A stretch of DNA of 64,000 nucleotides from an uncultured Candidatus Saccharibacteria bacterium (GTDB lineage: Bacteria > Patescibacteriota > Minisyncoccia > Phycocordibacterales > CALRHW01), in contig CAYMIL010000003.1 of the NCBI GenBank assembly GCA_964390845.1, positions 4,425 to 68,424 of the forward strand, given 5' to 3'. Below the pieces are notes generated by a model. It ran no database searches. It worked only from the letters and a program-made list of their open reading frames with translations, and was not told the DNA's origin. The first letter of the stretch is position 1. Every line of letters starts with the position of its first letter. Positions 2,930-28,016 of the stretch are shown piece by piece. A program made the position numbers and the translations under genes.

Positions 2930-2962
2930 AAGGGGTATTATACCAGAAAAAAGCCGCCTCCC

Positions 2963-3589
2963 TCAATAGTGTCGAGGGGGCGGCTGGTCGAACCATGCGA
3001 AGAGGAGCGCGACGGCTCCAACGGTGAAGATGGCGATTTCCGCCACAAACCACGTGCTGATCAGGTACTTCCTGAGCCAGTTCTTGTCGCCGTGGCTCTT
3101 GATGCGCTCATGAAGCACTGCAGGCTCCCACGCAGTAACCCACGCCATCGGGTTTTTGTGGACATACGGCGTGTTGTATGTGTCCACAAAGAACTTGTAT
3201 GCCTTGTTGGAAAATGGCCAGAGCCATTTCACACCCCACCCAACACCAAACGAGTCGTTGACGAAGTGGGTACTGGTGCAGGCACATGCAAGCAGGGCGC
3301 TGATGATCCCTGTCCGCACCGAGCCGTCGACAACTCCGCCAAGTGCCCCCGCAACGAGCGCGAGCGCCGGCAGGAAGACGAGGGGGTAGTGGAAGAGGTC
3401 CCGGTGGTTGTGCGGGTTGTCCTTGTGGGCCGTGATGCCACCCAAGAACAGTGCGTCGAAGTCTGGAAGCACGGAGCACATGAGTGCAAGCGCGAGGAGT
3501 CCCCAGTGCGTGTGAAGGGGCACATCGAATGCGTTGCACATCACCGAGGTCCAGAGCATGGCAAAACCTAGGTCTGAAATGAACAACAT
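2963..3589 (-). CDS. membrane-bound metal-dependent hydrolase, YdjM/DUF457-like
   Basis: LPDFD and HNHRDLFHYP motifs resemble the E. coli YdjM LPDIDHP/HRGFTHS motifs; AGGAGG SD 6 nt before the internal ATG (M73 of the track ORF); the upstream part of the track ORF overlaps tRNA-Gln; GC-rich. Confidence 0.6.
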   Translation of the reverse strand: MLFISDLGFAMLWTSVMCNAFDVPLHTHWGLLALALMCSVLPDFDALFLGGITAHKDNPHNHRDLFHYPLVFLPALALVAGALGGVVDGSVRTGIISALLACACTSTHFVNDSFGVGWGVKWLWPFSNKAYKFFVDTYNTPYVHKNPMAWVTAWEPAVLHERIKSHGDKNWLRKYLISTWFVAEIAIFTVGAVALLFAWFDQPPPRHY

Positions 3590-8173: not shown

Positions 8174-8267
8174 GTGTTAATGATAGCGCAGGGTTCTCGT
8201 CTTTTGTGTGGATAAGAACACCCCTCGCCGACAATGTCGACGAGGGGTGCGGTGCCTTGGGTCTGCT

Positions 8268-8927
8268 TCACGCGATGACTTCGTGCCACAGTTTGACGAT
8301 CTCGCCGACGACTTGGTCGACGCTCATCATGGTGGTATCGATGATGATTGCTCCCCGGGCGGTGGTGAGTGGGGCACACTCGCGCTTCTTGTCTCGCTCA
8401 TCCCGTTCGATGATGGCGGTGCGGATAGCGAAGAGTGATCCCTGATGTGTGCGCCGGGCGTCGCTCGCGATTCTCATGGCACGAGTGTCTTCGCTTGCGT
8501 CCATGTAGATCTTGAGCTTCGCTTCTGGGAAGACCACGCTCCCCATGTCGCGCCCTTCAGCAACGATGCCTTGGGTGCCGACCTGGCTCTGCAGGATGTG
8601 GTTGACGTCTCGGCGCACCGCGGGAATCTTGCCGATTTCCGAGGCACGCTTGCCCATCTCCTCACTCCAGAGCCTCTGTGGCGGCTCGCTTCCGCTGATG
8701 AGCAGTTGGTCGCCGTTGAAGCTGATGCGCGTCACGTCGAAGCGTGACTGGTCCTTGTTGTGTATGGACGCGCCCTGGTTTTGCAGATACGCCGCGGCGC
8801 GATAGACCACGCCGGAGTGCAGAACACGGAAGCCGAGCTTCTGTGCGACAAGTTTGCTCACGGTGCTCTTGCCAACACCGGCGGGACCATCGATCGTGAT
8901 CACGCGTTCCTTCGGTGTCAAATTCAT
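8268..8927 (-). CDS. cmk: cytidylate kinase
   Basis: ITIDGPAGVGKSTV P-loop and the LHSGVVYR motif; GC-rich compared with its neighbours. Confidence 0.9.
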   Translation of the reverse strand: MNLTPKERVITIDGPAGVGKSTVSKLVAQKLGFRVLHSGVVYRAAAYLQNQGASIHNKDQSRFDVTRISFNGDQLLISGSEPPQRLWSEEMGKRASEIGKIPAVRRDVNHILQSQVGTQGIVAEGRDMGSVVFPEAKLKIYMDASEDTRAMRIASDARRTHQGSLFAIRTAIIERDERDKKRECAPLTTARGAIIIDTTMMSVDQVVGEIVKLWHEVIA

Positions 8928-13736: not shown

Positions 13737-13742
13737 TCAGCC

Positions 13743-14324
13743 GTGAAAAACATACTCCTCATACTGTGCTGTGTGGTGATACTCGCGTTTGGTATACATG
13801 CAGTTGTGTTTTATGTGAGTGAAAAGAATGTGGTTGCGTCGATACAAACGTTTGAGGAGTGTGAAAAAAACGGTTACCCTGTTGCAGAGTCTCTTCCGCG
13901 CCAGTGTCGAACGCCAGATGACAGGGTGTTTGTGGAAGATGTGCAGCGCGCGCATCCTGTTGGCGATATTGCTGATATGATTCGGGTGGACATGCCACAT
14001 GCGCACGCGACCATTACAAGTCCGCTTACAGTGACAGGTGTGGCGCGTGGTCAGTGGTATTTTGAGGCATCATTTCCGGTAACATTGCTTGATGCGTCTG
14101 GAAATGAACTCGCTACTGTTCCCGCGCAGGCACAGGGTGAATGGATGACCGAAGATTTTGTGCCTTTTGAAGCGGTGCTTGAATTTACCCCTCCTTCAGA
14201 TAAGATGGGTACACTCGTATTTAAAAAGGACAATCCTTCTGGCCTCCCAGAGTATGATCGAAGCTTTTCTATACCAGTATCCTTTACTACTCACACAACA
14301 GATGAAGAACATGAAGAAGAATGA
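13743..14324 (+). CDS. Gmad2 immunoglobulin-like domain protein with N-terminal TM anchor (GTG start)
   Basis: SPLTVTGVARGQWYFEASFPVTLLDASGNELATVPAQAQGEWMTEDFVPFEA matches the Gmad2/GerMN-associated Ig-like domain pattern. Confidence 0.6.
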   Translation: MKNILLILCCVVILAFGIHAVVFYVSEKNVVASIQTFEECEKNGYPVAESLPRQCRTPDDRVFVEDVQRAHPVGDIADMIRVDMPHAHATITSPLTVTGVARGQWYFEASFPVTLLDASGNELATVPAQAQGEWMTEDFVPFEAVLEFTPPSDKMGTLVFKKDNPSGLPEYDRSFSIPVSFTTHTTDEEHEEE

Positions 14325-16245: not shown

Positions 16246-16380
16246 GTACGCTCCTAAGTATACCTCGAGGAAGGAGCTCTTGACAGTGGAAAAATAAAGG
16301 CATATGGTAATGAGGAATCGCACCTTGGAATATTGCTCGACATGTTGTCGGCTCTTCGGTGCTCTGTCAAGGAGGTGTTT

Positions 16381-17055
16381 ATGCGTCGCATGTGCATGCT
16401 CCCGTTTCTGCTGATGATCGCTTGTGCGGTGACCTTGGTTGCCGCGGGCGACAAGAACACCGGCGACACGTCGTCGCCGAGCAAGTCGGAACACCGCGAC
16501 ATCTTCCGCGGGGGTCGTGTGACTCCCGACGAAATGGCAACCATCGCGCAGACCTTCTGCGCCGATGGCTACGCGGTGACGCAGTCCCGCGTGGTGGTTC
16601 CGAACGACGGTTCGGCGCTGTTCGTGGTTGGTGTCCTGACTACCAAGTCGGGGCGCCAGTACAACTTCGGCGACATCTTGCCTCCGGGCGAGGTGATCGT
16701 GTCCGGCATGGCGTGGGTCATGCCGCGTGGTCCTGATGCGTTCATGGACTACGACGGGTACAACGGCGTTCTCGAAGTCGCCGCTGGCGAGATGGTGGTC
16801 GTCGGGGACGTCCTCGACACCAGCGCCGACGGAGGCACTCCGGCGTCCACGGGACCGCAGACCTGCACGGTGACGTGTGGTACGTCAGCGTACTACGCCT
16901 GCTGCAGTTACCGGCCCGATGGTTACCCCACCTGCCACTGCAAGAAGCAGACGGAGAACGCCTCCTGCGCTTCCGGTGGCCCTGGGGCGAGCCAGTGCTC
17001 GCTGTCGCAGTCGCCTCCCGGCTCGAGTCAGCCGGGCAACAAGCCGCAGAACTAG
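16381..17055 (+). CDS. secreted cysteine-rich hypothetical protein (GC-rich island)
   Basis: AGGAGG SD 6 nt before the ATG; signal peptide MRRMCMLPFLLMIACAVTLVAAG; 10 Cys clustered in the last 50 aa; strongly GC-enriched third codon positions. Confidence 0.6.
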   Translation: MRRMCMLPFLLMIACAVTLVAAGDKNTGDTSSPSKSEHRDIFRGGRVTPDEMATIAQTFCADGYAVTQSRVVVPNDGSALFVVGVLTTKSGRQYNFGDILPPGEVIVSGMAWVMPRGPDAFMDYDGYNGVLEVAAGEMVVVGDVLDTSADGGTPASTGPQTCTVTCGTSAYYACCSYRPDGYPTCHCKKQTENASCASGGPGASQCSLSQSPPGSSQPGNKPQN

Positions 17056-23716: not shown

Positions 23717-23799
23717 TATTCCTCGTCAGAACGTAGGAGTGTGTGCACGTGGCTTCGTGGTCTGTGCATACTACTCACCTAATAGTGAAGGAGGAACTC

Positions 23800-24375
23800 A
23801 TGTCTTTTCTAGACCGAGTGGCGCCGTCCATGCGACGCATGATTGCATGTGGCCGTGTCCCAAGAAGGCTCGTCTATGAGTACGCGCGACGCCGTGGTGT
23901 CGACGCAGATCTGATGCTTCGCTACGATAGGTGGTTGCGCTTCTACAGCGCGCTTCACCTGCCCGTGTCACTGCTGAAGCCCTTTGCGTGCTTGGATACC
24001 GTGCGCACGTGGAGAGCGTGCATCGATGACCTGCTCGTGATGTACTGCTTGCTTGAGATTCCTCTCGGCAAGCCCGTCAACTTCACGCAGATTGACAATG
24101 CTGTCGAGGAGAGTCTCGTCAACAACCGTGTCGCTGTCCTTGTACACGGTCGTCTCGCTCGTGAGAAGGAGCTCGCGTCGAAACATGAGGATGTCGTCAA
24201 GGTTCTCGATAATGAATTCAGTGAGCGCTACGCACTCTATCAGTCGTTCAGTCTCGTTGGTGATATGGGTTGCTACGCTCACAGGGCGCGAATCGTGTTT
24301 TGGCAGAACCCCGATGACCCTGGGGGCAGGCTCACGGATTTGCTCAAGGAAGAAATCAACCGCAAGGTCAACTAA
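23800..24375 (+). CDS. hypothetical protein (GC-rich island)
   Basis: GAAGGAGG SD plus spacer before the ATG at 23800; no recognisable domain; followed by a hairpin plus T-run. Confidence 0.5.
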   Translation: MSFLDRVAPSMRRMIACGRVPRRLVYEYARRRGVDADLMLRYDRWLRFYSALHLPVSLLKPFACLDTVRTWRACIDDLLVMYCLLEIPLGKPVNFTQIDNAVEESLVNNRVAVLVHGRLAREKELASKHEDVVKVLDNEFSERYALYQSFSLVGDMGCYAHRARIVFWQNPDDPGGRLTDLLKEEINRKVN

Positions 24376-25343: not shown

Positions 25344-25357
25344 GTGTAATAAAAAAC

Positions 25358-25393
25358 GAGACCCCTCCGCGATGTCCGCGGTAGGGGTCTTTG
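25358..25393. terminator. bidirectional terminator hairpin between convergent genes
   Basis: GAGACCCCT-ccgcgatgtccgcgg-TAGGGGTCT with an A-run upstream and TTTGTGTG downstream. Confidence 0.65.
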
Positions 25394-25408
25394 TGTGAGA
25401 TGTGATGC

Positions 25409-25972
25409 TCACTGCTGAGCACGAATGATGGCCGCGTCAACCGTCTGCTGGAGGGTCCGCACTCGAGGCCAGCACTCCGGGCTCTCTCGCACGGCCTCTC
25501 GGAAGTTGTGCGTGATCTCGCGCTGGCCCGGAAAGTCCTCCTCCATGCCGATGACGACACGTCTGTGGTGTTCGAACATCAGGTGTCCACGCCACTCGCC
25601 GAGTTCGCCTCGGGTGTCCTGCGCGTATGGGCCTTCTGCTGGGTCGCGTGGGACGGTCTTGGACTCGCAGGGGAGCCAGAACATGAGGCACCCCTTGCGA
25701 GACGCAAACTCCATCCACCGACGCTCCCACTTGATGTGGTGCACCGGCTCAGGGTTTGAGTTTGGGGTGATCTCGTGTGCACGGATCGGATGGTCACTCG
25801 GATAGGAAACGGGGATCACGAGCGTGCACGAAAGCGAGTACCGCGAGAAGATCTTGTGACACTCGCTCTGCCAGTCGTTGCCTCCGCGCACAGGCCCAGC
25901 CAGGAAAAAGACATGACCAGGCGGGTTGATCGATTCGGGCATCGTCTTCGGAAGAACAATTTTCGCCGACAT
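25409..25972 (-). CDS. nucleoside 2-deoxyribosyltransferase-like (DNPH1/Rcl-type fold) protein, tentative
   Basis: VFFLAGPVRG...W N-terminal motif and a downstream VVIGMEED region resemble the N-deoxyribosyltransferase-like superfamily; GC-rich. Confidence 0.4.
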   Translation of the reverse strand: MSAKIVLPKTMPESINPPGHVFFLAGPVRGGNDWQSECHKIFSRYSLSCTLVIPVSYPSDHPIRAHEITPNSNPEPVHHIKWERRWMEFASRKGCLMFWLPCESKTVPRDPAEGPYAQDTRGELGEWRGHLMFEHHRRVVIGMEEDFPGQREITHNFREAVRESPECWPRVRTLQQTVDAAIIRAQQ

Positions 25973-26107
25973 GGTGCTCCCTTCGAAAGTGGTGAACGGG
26001 TGGGGATTGCGTGTCAGAAACCAGTGTCTACCGTAGCATACGTGCAGTAGCGCGTCTATAGTATTGTGTTGTCTGTGAGTTGATTTCGCGCTATTGTTGT
26101 CTGCATT

Positions 26108-26197
26108 GGAAAGATGCCAGAGCGGTCGAATGGGCCACCCTGGAAAGGTGGTATATCCGAAAGGGTATCGAGGGTTCGAATCCCTCTCTTTCCGCCA
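26108..26197 (+). tRNA. tRNA-Ser (anticodon GGA), long variable arm, CCA encoded
   Basis: Acceptor GGAAAGA/TCTTTCC, anticodon loop CUGGAAA, 18-nt variable arm, GGTTCGAATCC T-arm, G-CCA end. Confidence 0.85.
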
Positions 26198-26288
26198 ATT
26201 TCGTATCTATTGAACAAAACCCGCCTTTGCGGTACTGTGTTTTTGGAAGTTTGTACGAGCTAAACCCAATACGAGGAGGTGATGTAAC

Positions 26289-26843
26289 ATGTCGACGCCC
26301 AAGAAGCTTCGCATCCGTCTGCTTGGCGACCCTGTTCTGCGCAGTGTCGCACAGCGTGTCAAAAGTCCACGTCATCCAACAATCCGCAAGATTGTCCGCG
26401 ATCTCGTGCACACCTTTGAGGTGTACGGCGGCGGCGGTCTTTCCGCGCCACAAGTCGGGCACTCTCTGCGCATCATTGTGGTCGGCATTCGGTCATCGCC
26501 GCGCTATCCAGACATCATGCCGACTAGGCGTCACGTCATGATCAACCCTGTATTCCTGACGAAGTCTTACTCTGTGGAGGATGGACCAGAGGGGTGCGTG
26601 AGCTTGCCGGGGCTCATTGCGTTGAAGGTGCCACGTCACGCCAGTGTGCGCATTCAGTGGACGACGCCTGGGGGTCGTGTCCTGGAAGGCTGTTTTACGG
26701 GCACGTTTGCCCGTATCATCCAGCATGAGATGGACCACCTTGACGGACTCATGTTCACGGACCGCCTCAAGAACAACAAGTCGCTCGTCTCGTGGAAGGG
26801 GTATGAGAAGCTTTGCGCCACCGACAACGTGTCGCAGAAGTGA
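26289..26843 (+). CDS. def: peptide deformylase
   Basis: GLSAPQVG, EGCVSLPG and QHEMDHLDG motifs; GAGGAGG SD; GC-rich. Confidence 0.9.
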   Translation: MSTPKKLRIRLLGDPVLRSVAQRVKSPRHPTIRKIVRDLVHTFEVYGGGGLSAPQVGHSLRIIVVGIRSSPRYPDIMPTRRHVMINPVFLTKSYSVEDGPEGCVSLPGLIALKVPRHASVRIQWTTPGGRVLEGCFTGTFARIIQHEMDHLDGLMFTDRLKNNKSLVSWKGYEKLCATDNVSQK

Positions 26844-26861
26844 TCTTCTTCGCTCAGCGCC

Positions 26862-26904
26862 AACCCGCCTCGCGTCTCTGACGTTGAGGCGGGTTTCTTT
26901 TATT
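26862..26904 (+). terminator. rho-independent terminator
   Basis: AACCCGCCTC-loop-GAGGCGGGTT followed by TCTTTTATT. Confidence 0.75.
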
Positions 26905-26996
26905 GACGCTTATATGCCTCGGGTATACGATGAACTATGAGAATTCTTGGCGCGTTGCCGAGGATATGTTCCTTACCAGATCAGAAGGAGGAGGGT

Positions 26997-27959
26997 ATGG
27001 CAAAAAAGAACCCACTGAGTAGCCCGGTGTTCATGGGCCGCCCATTCCGCATGGCTGTGAAGGGAGGAATGCTTCGGCCTTTCTGCAAGAGCGTCGAGGT
27101 GTTGCCGAAGATTCAGAAGGAGGGAAGGTTTTACACCCTCCATCTCTGCATCAACAAGGGACGCAAGACGCTCTCGTACACCCCAGTCTTGTACCAGTGC
27201 GACCTCGTCGCGCTGTGGCGGAGTGCGCAGGTCATCGAGCGGTTTCGCTCCATTTCGTCTGAGGACATGATGTACGCGTACTGTGCTGTCTACTGGGCAT
27301 CGTACAACGAAGCCTCGGGCATCACGCACGCCAACGACGCACAGTGTGTCACCGAAGTCCGCAAGGTCATCGGCGACGATGAGTTTGTGCGGATCATGCA
27401 AACCCCACCGCCAGAGGACATCATCAAGGCAATCGTGATGGGTGCCGGCGTCAAGAGGAGCCTTTCTCTGACGCCGCTCACCTACGAGTGCAAGCGTGGC
27501 ACGATTTTGTGGAGGAATACGTTTGCTCAGGTGTGCGTCCTGCACCCTGAGACATGGGAAGCTCGACGAGAGAGTCTCAAGGAAATCCTCTACAAGTACG
27601 AACCCGACCTGCACAACTGTGCGGTGGAGGTGCTCGAATCGTTCTCGCGCGACATCAACTGCGTGCCGATGCTTGAGGTGGTCGCTGGAGACATCATCTT
27701 CGACGCGCCCTACGCATCGATCACTCCGCACGTTCTCTGCGCCGCGTCGGCGATTGTGCTTGGGCTTCGTCTTCACACCCAGCGCAAGATCGACAAGGGC
27801 CAGAATGTGAGTGAGCTCGGGTTTCAGGAGGCCGTGCACGCACGCCTCTATGAACGTGCGGTGCTCTGGCTCAAAAGCCGCACTGAACGAAAGGATGAGG
27901 AACGAGTGTTCAAGGAACTCGACTTCGTCTTGGAGCAGACGGTCGCGTGCTCCATCTAG
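26997..27959 (+). CDS. hypothetical protein, 321 aa (GC-rich island)
   Basis: GAAGGAGGAGGG SD before the ATG at 26997; Cys-containing; no recognisable domain. Confidence 0.5.
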   Translation: MAKKNPLSSPVFMGRPFRMAVKGGMLRPFCKSVEVLPKIQKEGRFYTLHLCINKGRKTLSYTPVLYQCDLVALWRSAQVIERFRSISSEDMMYAYCAVYWASYNEASGITHANDAQCVTEVRKVIGDDEFVRIMQTPPPEDIIKAIVMGAGVKRSLSLTPLTYECKRGTILWRNTFAQVCVLHPETWEARRESLKEILYKYEPDLHNCAVEVLESFSRDINCVPMLEVVAGDIIFDAPYASITPHVLCAASAIVLGLRLHTQRKIDKGQNVSELGFQEAVHARLYERAVLWLKSRTERKDEERVFKELDFVLEQTVACSI

Positions 27960-27972
27960 GTTCTCCTTCGAG

Positions 27973-28016
27973 GGGCCGCCACCAGATCGTTTGGTGGCGG
28001 CCCTTTTCTTTTTTCT
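27973..28016 (+). terminator. rho-independent terminator
   Basis: GGGCCGCCACC-agatcgttt-GGTGGCGGCCC followed by a TTTTCTTTTTTC run. Confidence 0.8.

Follow-up and report, generated by a model that had tools for sequence, protein, structure and literature searches.

Horizontal gene transfer is already documented in the Patescibacteria, whose genomes carry many islands as well as singly transferred genes, together up to 13% of genome length; most of these transfers take place among Patescibacteria themselves, and translation genes are enriched among the genes concerned (PMC12455944). The window analysed here is a 64-kb stretch of contig CAYMIL010000003.1 (assembly GCA_964390845.1), and its strongest compositional outlier is a GC-rich block of about 2.6 kb beside a tRNA-Ser(GGA) gene. 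The block lies between htpX and a yceI-like gene and contains three protein-coding genes: one for a 187-amino-acid (aa) protein that resembles nucleoside 2-deoxyribosyltransferases (NDT), the peptide deformylase gene def, and one for a 320-aa protein of a rare family. It probably represents accessory cargo, horizontally transferred into the chromosome of a Paceibacteria-type member of the candidate phyla radiation (CPR) at a fast-turnover slot around htpX and tRNA-Ser(GGA).

Composition and boundaries of the block

The block and its edges comprise the following features:

25357..28003, no strand: whole GC-rich segment, the largest of six in the window (hidden Markov model (HMM) segmentation, GC content, GC content at third codon positions (GC3), 4-mer distance)
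25352..25392, no strand: GC-rich hairpin at the left edge, likely a bidirectional terminator (direct reading of the sequence: AAAAAACGAGACCCCTCCGCGATGTCCGCGGTAGGGGTCTTTGTG)
25409..25972, minus strand: gene for the 187-aa NDT-like protein, GC 0.61, GC3 0.745, Shine-Dalgarno (SD) sequence AAGGGAG (homologues, PF15891 in the family, AlphaFold2 (AF2) and Foldseek)
26108..26197, plus strand: tRNA-Ser(GGA), native syntenic anchor (ARAGORN and Rfam)
26289..26843, plus strand: def, peptide deformylase, 184 aa, GC3 0.70 (PF01327, NF001159)
26864..26900, plus strand: intrinsic terminator of def (AACCCGCCTC...GAGGCGGGTT then TCTTTTATT)
26903..26931, plus strand: promoter-like site before the 320-aa gene, TTGACG, 17 nt, TACGAT (consensus match only)
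26997..27959, plus strand: gene for the 320-aa protein, rare uncharacterised family, GC3 0.745 (codon likelihood, collinear homologues, AF2)
26973..27839, minus strand: antisense open reading frame (ORF) of 288 aa, judged spurious (public gene call)
27970..28016, plus strand: strong intrinsic terminator of the 320-aa gene at the right edge (17-bp stem followed by a T-run)

A first inspection of the letters and ORFs of this DNA (the sequence-only reading) had noticed that three consecutive genes are richer in GC than htpX upstream and the yceI-like gene downstream. This contrast is confirmed by GC content, GC3 and segmentation. The GC content of positions 25344-28016 is 0.569, against 0.474 elsewhere, and ranks first among 2.6-kb windows of the 64 kb. 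A two-state HMM places the limits at 25357-28003 (GC 0.573), the left one immediately behind the htpX stop codon and the right one at the terminator that follows the 320-aa gene. GC3 is 0.745 in the 187-aa gene, 0.697 in def and 0.745 in the 320-aa gene, compared with 0.444 in htpX and 0.37 in the yceI-like ORF; across the window the mean per gene is 0.49 (standard deviation 0.11), with host genes at about 0.44. Tetranucleotide profiles give the same picture, so that composition is not uniform and the block stands out by all three measures: the distance in 4-mer frequencies between the block and the rest is 0.396, as against 0.208 +/- 0.029 for windows of the same size, and the GC-normalised correlation of tetranucleotide z-scores (TETRA) is 0.366, among the lowest (comparison 0.574 +/- 0.087). 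The outlier is therefore real, but it is not unique, since five further GC-rich segments are present in the window (see below).

The difference extends to codon and amino-acid usage. Compared by relative synonymous codon usage (RSCU), the block genes are unlike host genes (r = 0.28) but resemble the other GC-rich genes (0.88), whereas two halves of the host background correlate with each other at 0.95. The ratio Arg/(Arg+Lys) is raised to 0.55-0.74 (background 0.46), and GC content at second codon positions (GC2) and amino-acid usage are also shifted, beyond synonymous sites. The intergenic DNA adjoining tRNA-Ser(GGA) is AT-richer, with GC of 0.42-0.50.

All three ORFs could be placed where they had been read, at 25409-25972 on the minus strand (187 aa), 26289-26843 on the plus strand (184 aa) and 26997-27959 on the plus strand (320 aa). 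Each has its own strong SD, namely AAGGGAG for the 187-aa gene, GAGGAGG for def and GAAGGAGGAGGG for the 320-aa gene, and each ends in its own GC-rich hairpin followed by a T-run, as had also been claimed. The hairpin at 25352..25392 is likely a bidirectional terminator, because it is preceded by an A-run, is followed by a T-run and lies between the convergent htpX (plus strand) and 187-aa gene (minus strand). The promoter-like site at 26903..26931 suggests that the 320-aa gene is transcribed apart from def.

Compositional edges as sharp as these might be expected from an assembly chimera or contamination, with GC-rich foreign reads spliced into the contig. We give this explanation practically no weight: the 187-aa gene is read on six contigs from NCBI, Logan and ENA assemblies, of up to 302 kb, the edges coincide exactly with the boundaries of genes and terminators, with matching expression signals for each gene, and ten such genes are interleaved with native genes on one contig.

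Synteny of the htpX-tRNA-Ser(GGA) region

Relatives of the region were sampled as 80 htpX loci retrieved with the HtpX protein, the best match being 69% identical. All 80 loci belong to metagenome-assembled genomes of Patescibacteria/Paceibacteria type, and the host is a Paceibacteria-type Patescibacterium. A gene string consisting of RNase J, SBP, secG, groES, groEL, lemA and htpX is widely conserved. A tRNA-Ser(GGA) gene is found downstream of htpX in 55 of the 80 loci, at a distance of 8 bp to about 3 kb where it is co-oriented with htpX, and the tRNA-Ser of the window is 97.8% identical to the one in locus L079. This linkage and this identity identify the tRNA as a native anchor and its flanking DNA as a variable slot. 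An imported tRNA-Ser, considered as an alternative, is ruled out by the same two observations.

The content of the slot in relatives is heterogeneous, with 169 ORFs of which 130 are singletons, and the commonest cargo family, a GGDEF protein, is present in six loci only. When the flanks of the tRNA were compared with those in loci L079 and L060, no homology was detected outside the tRNA itself. The closest relative, locus L001 (GroEL 82% and LemA 80% identical to those of the window), has the order htpX, 52 bp, tRNA-Ser(GGA), about 5 bp, tag, a gene for an RRM protein and a DUF192 gene; the 187-aa gene, def, the 320-aa gene and yceI are all missing from its syntenic region. Since the tRNA-Ser is native and the closest relative lacks all three genes, the block is accessory cargo that occupies both sides of a conserved anchor. 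More generally, relatives of def, of the 187-aa gene or of the 320-aa gene are present in none of the 80 htpX loci. Synteny of the exact block in distant relatives, which the sequence-only reading had named as evidence that would speak against a foreign origin, was thus sought and not encountered. The acquired origin suggested for the block is borne out by its atypical composition, by its codon usage (RSCU r 0.28) and by the absence of all three genes from the L001 region and the 80 htpX loci.

Two relatives have htpX-tRNA-Ser gaps of 308 and 349 bp (L008, 10901-11208; L067, 1028-1376), with GC of 0.51 and 0.59 against genome values of 0.36 and 0.45, respectively. Neither gap is long enough for the usual cargo genes; a small structured RNA might lie there instead.

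The same framework raises the question of whether the three genes arrived together, in a one-step replacement. The entire segment would then have come from a GC-rich Paceibacterium that shares this framework, through homologous recombination anchored on htpX, the tRNA and the downstream genes. The framework is conserved class-wide, including in genomes of 55-64% GC, the three genes have near-identical GC3, and another genome (L084) has a homologue of the 187-aa gene before tRNA-Ser(GGA), so that this family does occur beside the same tRNA elsewhere. However, htpX and the yceI-like gene keep the composition of the host right up to the edges of the block, the intergenic DNA by the tRNA is AT-richer (0.42-0.50), the tRNA most similar to that of the window belongs to a genome of 43% GC, and no locus with the three genes together was found. 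We therefore regard a one-step replacement as unlikely.

Other GC-rich genes in the window

GC3 per gene is bimodal in the window, and the six GC-rich segments delimited by the HMM cover 9% of it. About ten genes are GC-rich when weaker cases are included, and they are interleaved with host genes of 47% GC. In addition to the block, the following segments and patches were identified, with GC of 0.55-0.65 and GC3 of 0.64-0.83:

2953-3562: further GC-rich segment, adjoining tRNA-Gln
8221-8915: further GC-rich segment
16349-17104: further GC-rich segment
35725-36321: further GC-rich segment
39588-40117: further GC-rich segment
4870-5352: additional GC-rich patch
13737-14006: additional GC-rich patch
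23743-24375: additional GC-rich patch

The GC-rich genes outside the block code for a YdjM-like protein adjoining tRNA-Gln, a DUF218 protein, cytidylate kinase (cmk, 8268-8927), a 237-aa secreted Cys-rich protein, a 181/210-aa ORF between lemA and htpX, and two ORFs of 164 and 174 aa. Several of the ORFs match no family. The genes are all monocistronic, and an SD and a GC-rich terminator belong to each of them; apart from such ordinary signals, no shared boundary motif or cassette structure was seen among the ten GC-rich genes. Their distribution parallels that of the block genes: over the 22 kb that are syntenic with L001, none of six GC-rich genes is present in that relative, as opposed to 13 of 17 genes of normal GC (Fisher p ~0.002).

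The absence of the GC-rich genes from the L001 syntenic stretch also bears on the idea that they are old residents, whose high GC3 would have been kept or made in place; GC-biased gene conversion, acting on accessory genes that recombine often, or selection on expression could be the cause. Several observations favour such a process. The accessory genes of L001 are GC3-richer than its core genes; homologues of the 187-aa gene exceed the GC3 of their neighbours in 26 of 39 loci, with a maximal excess of +0.23 and a largest deficit of -0.11; homologues of the 320-aa gene show the same tendency relative to their host contigs; and there is no close donor in the databases. Nevertheless, the shift affects GC2 and amino-acid usage and not synonymous sites alone, and highly expressed native genes such as groEL have an ordinary GC3 of 0.44. 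Together with the absence from L001, this makes a resident origin quite improbable. The raised GC3 of accessory genes in several genomes suggests that the accessory genes of these genomes are biased toward high GC.

Some of these genes deserve separate mention. Homologues of the 187-aa and 320-aa genes often lie 0.1-0.2 above the GC or GC3 of their host contigs (L096, L102, L107, L133, L139, L155, L158 and L159; L087, L163 and L165). The GC-rich ORF at 23743-24375 on the plus strand, given as 181 aa in public records, separates lemA from htpX, two genes that lie side by side in most relatives, and has no family match in any library. The slot between the MFS transporter gene and the RNase J gene is GC-rich in both the window (16342-17055, plus strand) and L001 (1103-2781), and in both genomes the products of its genes have a signal peptide, a Cys-rich C-terminus and a Pro-rich tail. 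Positional homology between the 237-aa gene and the L001 gene in this slot was considered and rejected, the two having no sequence similarity.

Search for mobile-element signatures

Because tRNA genes are frequent targets of integration, the sequence-only reading had proposed the tRNA-Ser as an integration site and direct repeats of its 3' end as a possible trace. None of these repeats was found in the window. The 25-nt 3' end of the tRNA-Ser occurs once, even when up to three mismatches are allowed, the 14-nt 3' end gives only chance-level matches that lie far away, and none of the repeat families of the block involves the tRNA-Ser. No recombinase or integrase domain was detected in the ORFs of the block, whose neighbours are htpX and the yceI-like gene. 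Among these ORFs PHROGs recover a generic deformylase family only and PADLOC recovers nothing. Compared with plasmids, the DNA of the block matches at the tRNA alone, and the phage or plasmid relatives of its genes amount to ordinary deformylases of at most 39% identity.

These results weigh on a further explanation, according to which the block is the remnant of a genomic island or prophage that was inserted site-specifically in tRNA-Ser and has lost its integrase and attachment (att) sites. Its position next to a tRNA and its atypical composition would fit such a remnant, as would the GC-rich patch at 2953-3562, which also adjoins a tRNA gene (tRNA-Gln). On the other hand, GC-rich genes are located on both sides of a native tRNA, four other GC-rich patches are not beside tRNAs, and in the block neither a 3'-end repeat nor families of integrases, phages or defence systems were detected, its relatives in phages and plasmids being confined to the distant deformylases. 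A decayed island is thus very improbable, and the role of the tRNA as an integration site is not supported. Likewise, a tRNA-targeting integrase is an unlikely mechanism of insertion.

Origin of the block

The horizontal acquisition that we favour could have proceeded from an ancestral order of htpX, tRNA-Ser and downstream genes. The 187-aa gene would have been inserted after htpX and ahead of the tRNA, and the other two genes, def and that of the 320-aa protein, just past the tRNA, as self-contained units. The composition and codon usage of the three genes would be those of a GC-richer donor, a usage shared by about seven other GC-rich genes of the window, and the likeliest donors would be other, so far unsampled, Patescibacteria. 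Uptake of DNA was probably followed by recombination into the intergenic regions, for which the conserved flanks possibly served as anchors. Elsewhere, the neighbourhoods in which homologues of the 187-aa and 320-aa genes occur are CPR-like, and there is no linkage between the two families or with def; these homologues often exceed their hosts in GC, which fits mobile accessory genes.

Some points weigh against this scenario. No donor was found, the best matches in 5.8 billion proteins being 42% identical for def, 47% for the 187-aa protein and 35% for the 320-aa protein, so that a transfer described as recent would require that the donor is unsampled or that the genes diverged fast. Searches for mobility genes, att repeats and boundary motifs found none, and the mode of insertion is therefore purely one that we infer. 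The absence of the genes in relatives could be due to loss, the nearest relative being 69-82% identical in core proteins. Finally, the GC3-richer accessory genes of L001 could point to a process that shifts composition, and not to the composition of a donor.

The block is a new instance of an ordinary type of event, already documented for genomes of Patescibacteria. It is a small, clean illustration of how housekeeping-type functions (a deformylase, a cytidylate kinase and an enzyme of nucleoside-salvage type) reach ultra-small CPR genomes, and of how such gains occur as single-gene insertions at conserved junctions. A wider consequence would follow only if the bias of the accessory pool toward GC-rich genes, or the link between tRNA-Ser and the NDT-like family described below, proves general. 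A class-wide pattern in Paceibacteria that combines integrase-free hot spots at anchors, a GC-rich accessory pool and the NDT-like/tRNA-Ser link is doubtful at present. If it were true, the GC-rich pool would need a hidden GC-rich donor lineage or GC-biased conversion, and the proximity of the NDT-like family to tRNA-Ser could be a functional or a targeting link. Acquired DNA is usually biased toward AT, and a GC-rich pool would be the opposite.

The peptide deformylase gene

The identification of def is confirmed by PF01327 (E 6.2e-39, 133.5 bits for a cut-off of 22.8, profile positions 3-154 of 156) and by NF001159 (E 7e-41, 139.5 bits for a cut-off of 125). Deformylases are defined by the motifs GxGLxAxQ, EGCLS and HExxH. 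The corresponding catalytic and metal-binding motifs are all intact in the translation aligned to 5hgw, in the form of GGGLSAPQVG, EGCVSLPG and QHEMDHLDG. The top matches in the PDB are the Burkholderia-type 5hgw and the Leptospira 1sv2 (E 1e-26), and an insertion containing 'RYPD' is common to def and to the Burkholderia-type and Leptospira deformylases. The enzyme is divergent: itself excluded, the 5.8 billion proteins contain no match better than 42% identity, and deformylases encoded by phages do not exceed 39%. From its family and its intact motifs, def is the predicted supplier of N-terminal deformylation. Neither a second def nor fmt was found within the 64-kb window. The gene may be an acquired second copy or a xenologous replacement, the two options named in the sequence-only reading.

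The 187-aa NDT-like protein

The 187-aa protein has 34 homologues with 35-47% identity, which form a tight family of about 180 residues. The protein itself has no match in Pfam or NCBIfam at E <= 0.01, nor at E <= 1, but 18 of the 35 family members weakly match PF15891 ('nucleoside 2-deoxyribosyltransferase like'; best E 3.6e-6). An AF2 model based on the family alignment is confident, with a predicted local distance difference test (pLDDT) of 92 and a predicted template modelling score (pTM) of 0.89. Chains of 4mcj occupy the first eight places among its Foldseek matches in the PDB (E 3e-5 to 2e-4, probability 1.0, template modelling (TM) scores 0.57-0.73), the purine deoxyribosyltransferases 1s2d and 1s2l come next, and a profile search also reaches 4mcj (E 0.013). 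The label of deoxyribosyltransferase-like gene given in the sequence-only reading is thus upheld at the level of the fold, by the AF2 model, Foldseek and PF15891 in the family, but not by a profile match of the protein's own.

Among the residues that are invariant in the 35 members are D119, T120, G122 and E123, which belong to a D-T-R-G-E-L-G loop. We take the loop around E123 to resemble the catalytic (M/Y)-E-L-G motif of NDT and DNPH1, a comparison between motifs and not between superposed residues. A link to DNPH1 was also tried with hhalign and was rejected, the match not being significant (E 0.098). To judge from the modelled fold, the protein appears to be a divergent member of the nucleoside 2-deoxyribosyltransferase-like (PF15891-type) superfamily, and its most likely activity is to cleave or transfer the N-glycosidic bond of a nucleoside or nucleotide, in nucleotide salvage. 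In phages, only two weak matches (28-32% identity) were obtained, both in huge uncultured phages.

The occurrence of this family next to tRNA-Ser was counted over 58 non-redundant loci. A tRNA-Ser gene (anticodons GGA, TGA, GCT or CGA) lies within 400 bp of a family member in five of them (L082, L084, L111, L124 and L131), in addition to the window (25409-26197); in L084, for example, the order is LemA, GGDEF, the homologue of the 187-aa gene and tRNA-Ser(GGA). The density of tRNA-Ser is 0.125 per kb within 400 bp of the family and 0.011 per kb farther off in the same loci, which is an 11-fold difference (p = 0.0015), and other tRNAs near the family are enriched about three-fold.

Three of the homologues (P0026, P0032 and P0034) have longer N-termini of low complexity, rich in Gly and Ala, and a zinc finger of RanBP type is present in one of them. 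Since these three sequences look eukaryotic, the family may not be confined to bacteria.

The 320-aa protein and its wrong-strand annotation

The contig of the window is publicly available as scaffold_6 of ENA ERZ28655916 and as an NCBI contig of 302 kb. In the protein records of NCBI, Logan and ENA, the antisense ORF of 288 aa is reported in place of the gene at 26997-27959. Several lines of evidence indicate that the plus strand carries the real gene. The codon log-likelihood is -3.88 per codon in the 320-aa frame, the best of the six, against -4.15 in the antisense frame. The GC content peaks at codon position 3 in the 320-aa gene, and at position 1 in the antisense ORF. Moreover, an exhaustive HMMER search of 1.84 billion clusters recovered 44 distant homologues (P0036-P0079, E down to 1e-11, the best 35% identical), each of about 300-330 aa, which align collinearly from the ATG at 26997.

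As the public calls list the antisense ORF, the true 320-aa protein is missing from protein databases, and a word-based search missed even the protein itself. Neither this search nor DNA-pattern scans of viral and metagenome contigs revealed close relatives. The case illustrates an annotation hazard, in that the antisense frame stays open in GC3-rich foreign genes, and here a wrong-strand record hid a real and rare protein family.

The protein had been described as having 321 aa and no recognised domain. The latter is borne out, as it has no match in Pfam or NCBIfam, nor in PHROG or PADLOC, and no match in viral contigs, phages or plasmids. The structure check proposed for the two hypothetical proteins of the block yielded confident AF2 models for both: the 187-aa protein is NDT-like, as described above, whereas the model of the 320-aa protein (pLDDT 87.5, pTM 0.83), which consists of a small N-terminal beta unit followed by an all-alpha domain, has no fold match in two libraries, PDB and viral structures. 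The conserved residues of the family are W-R (74-75), R108, P139, E164, G-T (168-169) and W172, and no neighbouring gene is conserved around its homologues. The protein is real and soluble, belongs to a rare uncharacterised family and, from its model, may have an undescribed fold.

Its location next to def had evoked fmt in the sequence-only reading, and this candidate was rejected, the protein being unrelated to Fmt: Formyl_trans_N and Formyl_trans_C are absent, neither the protein nor 34 homologues match Pfam or NCBIfam, and the fold is a beta unit with an all-alpha domain. A query with the E. coli Fmt sequence gave no match in the window.

Comparison with known systems

The deformylase of the window resembles the solved enzymes of Burkholderia (5hgw/5kob) and Leptospira (1sv2) in its full-length match, its three motifs and its RYPD-containing insertion. 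It differs from known deformylases in being at most 42% identical to any database protein, in the lack of an adjoining fmt and in a composition that is foreign to its own genome.

The 187-aa protein and 4mcj (BDI_0649, a putative NDT) have in common a flavodoxin-like fold (TM 0.6-0.7), an N-terminal FLAG-x(5-6)-DWQ and a later WE motif. With respect to the NDT-like superfamily as a whole (PF15891/PF05014; 1s2d), the 187-aa family has an invariant Glu in its G-E-L-G motif; unlike members of that superfamily, the protein falls below every Pfam threshold, and its match to DNPH1 has an E-value of 0.098.

In comparison with tRNA-associated integrative islands, the block has neither an integrase nor a duplicated tRNA 3' end, it occupies both sides of the tRNA, and it measures only 2.6 kb; the features in common are the position adjacent to a tRNA, the atypical composition and the absence from relatives.

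The closest parallel is offered by the islands described in Patescibacteria (mSystems 2025, PMC12455944). Unlike these islands, the insertions of the window are single genes or a three-gene patch without mobility genes, all the strong outliers are GC-rich, and no donor can be named. The GC-rich segments make up about 9% of the window, as compared with 'up to 13% of genome length' in that study, and the block is like those islands in its small CPR genome, its atypical accessory genes, its likely CPR donors and the presence of a translation-related gene, def, in its cargo.

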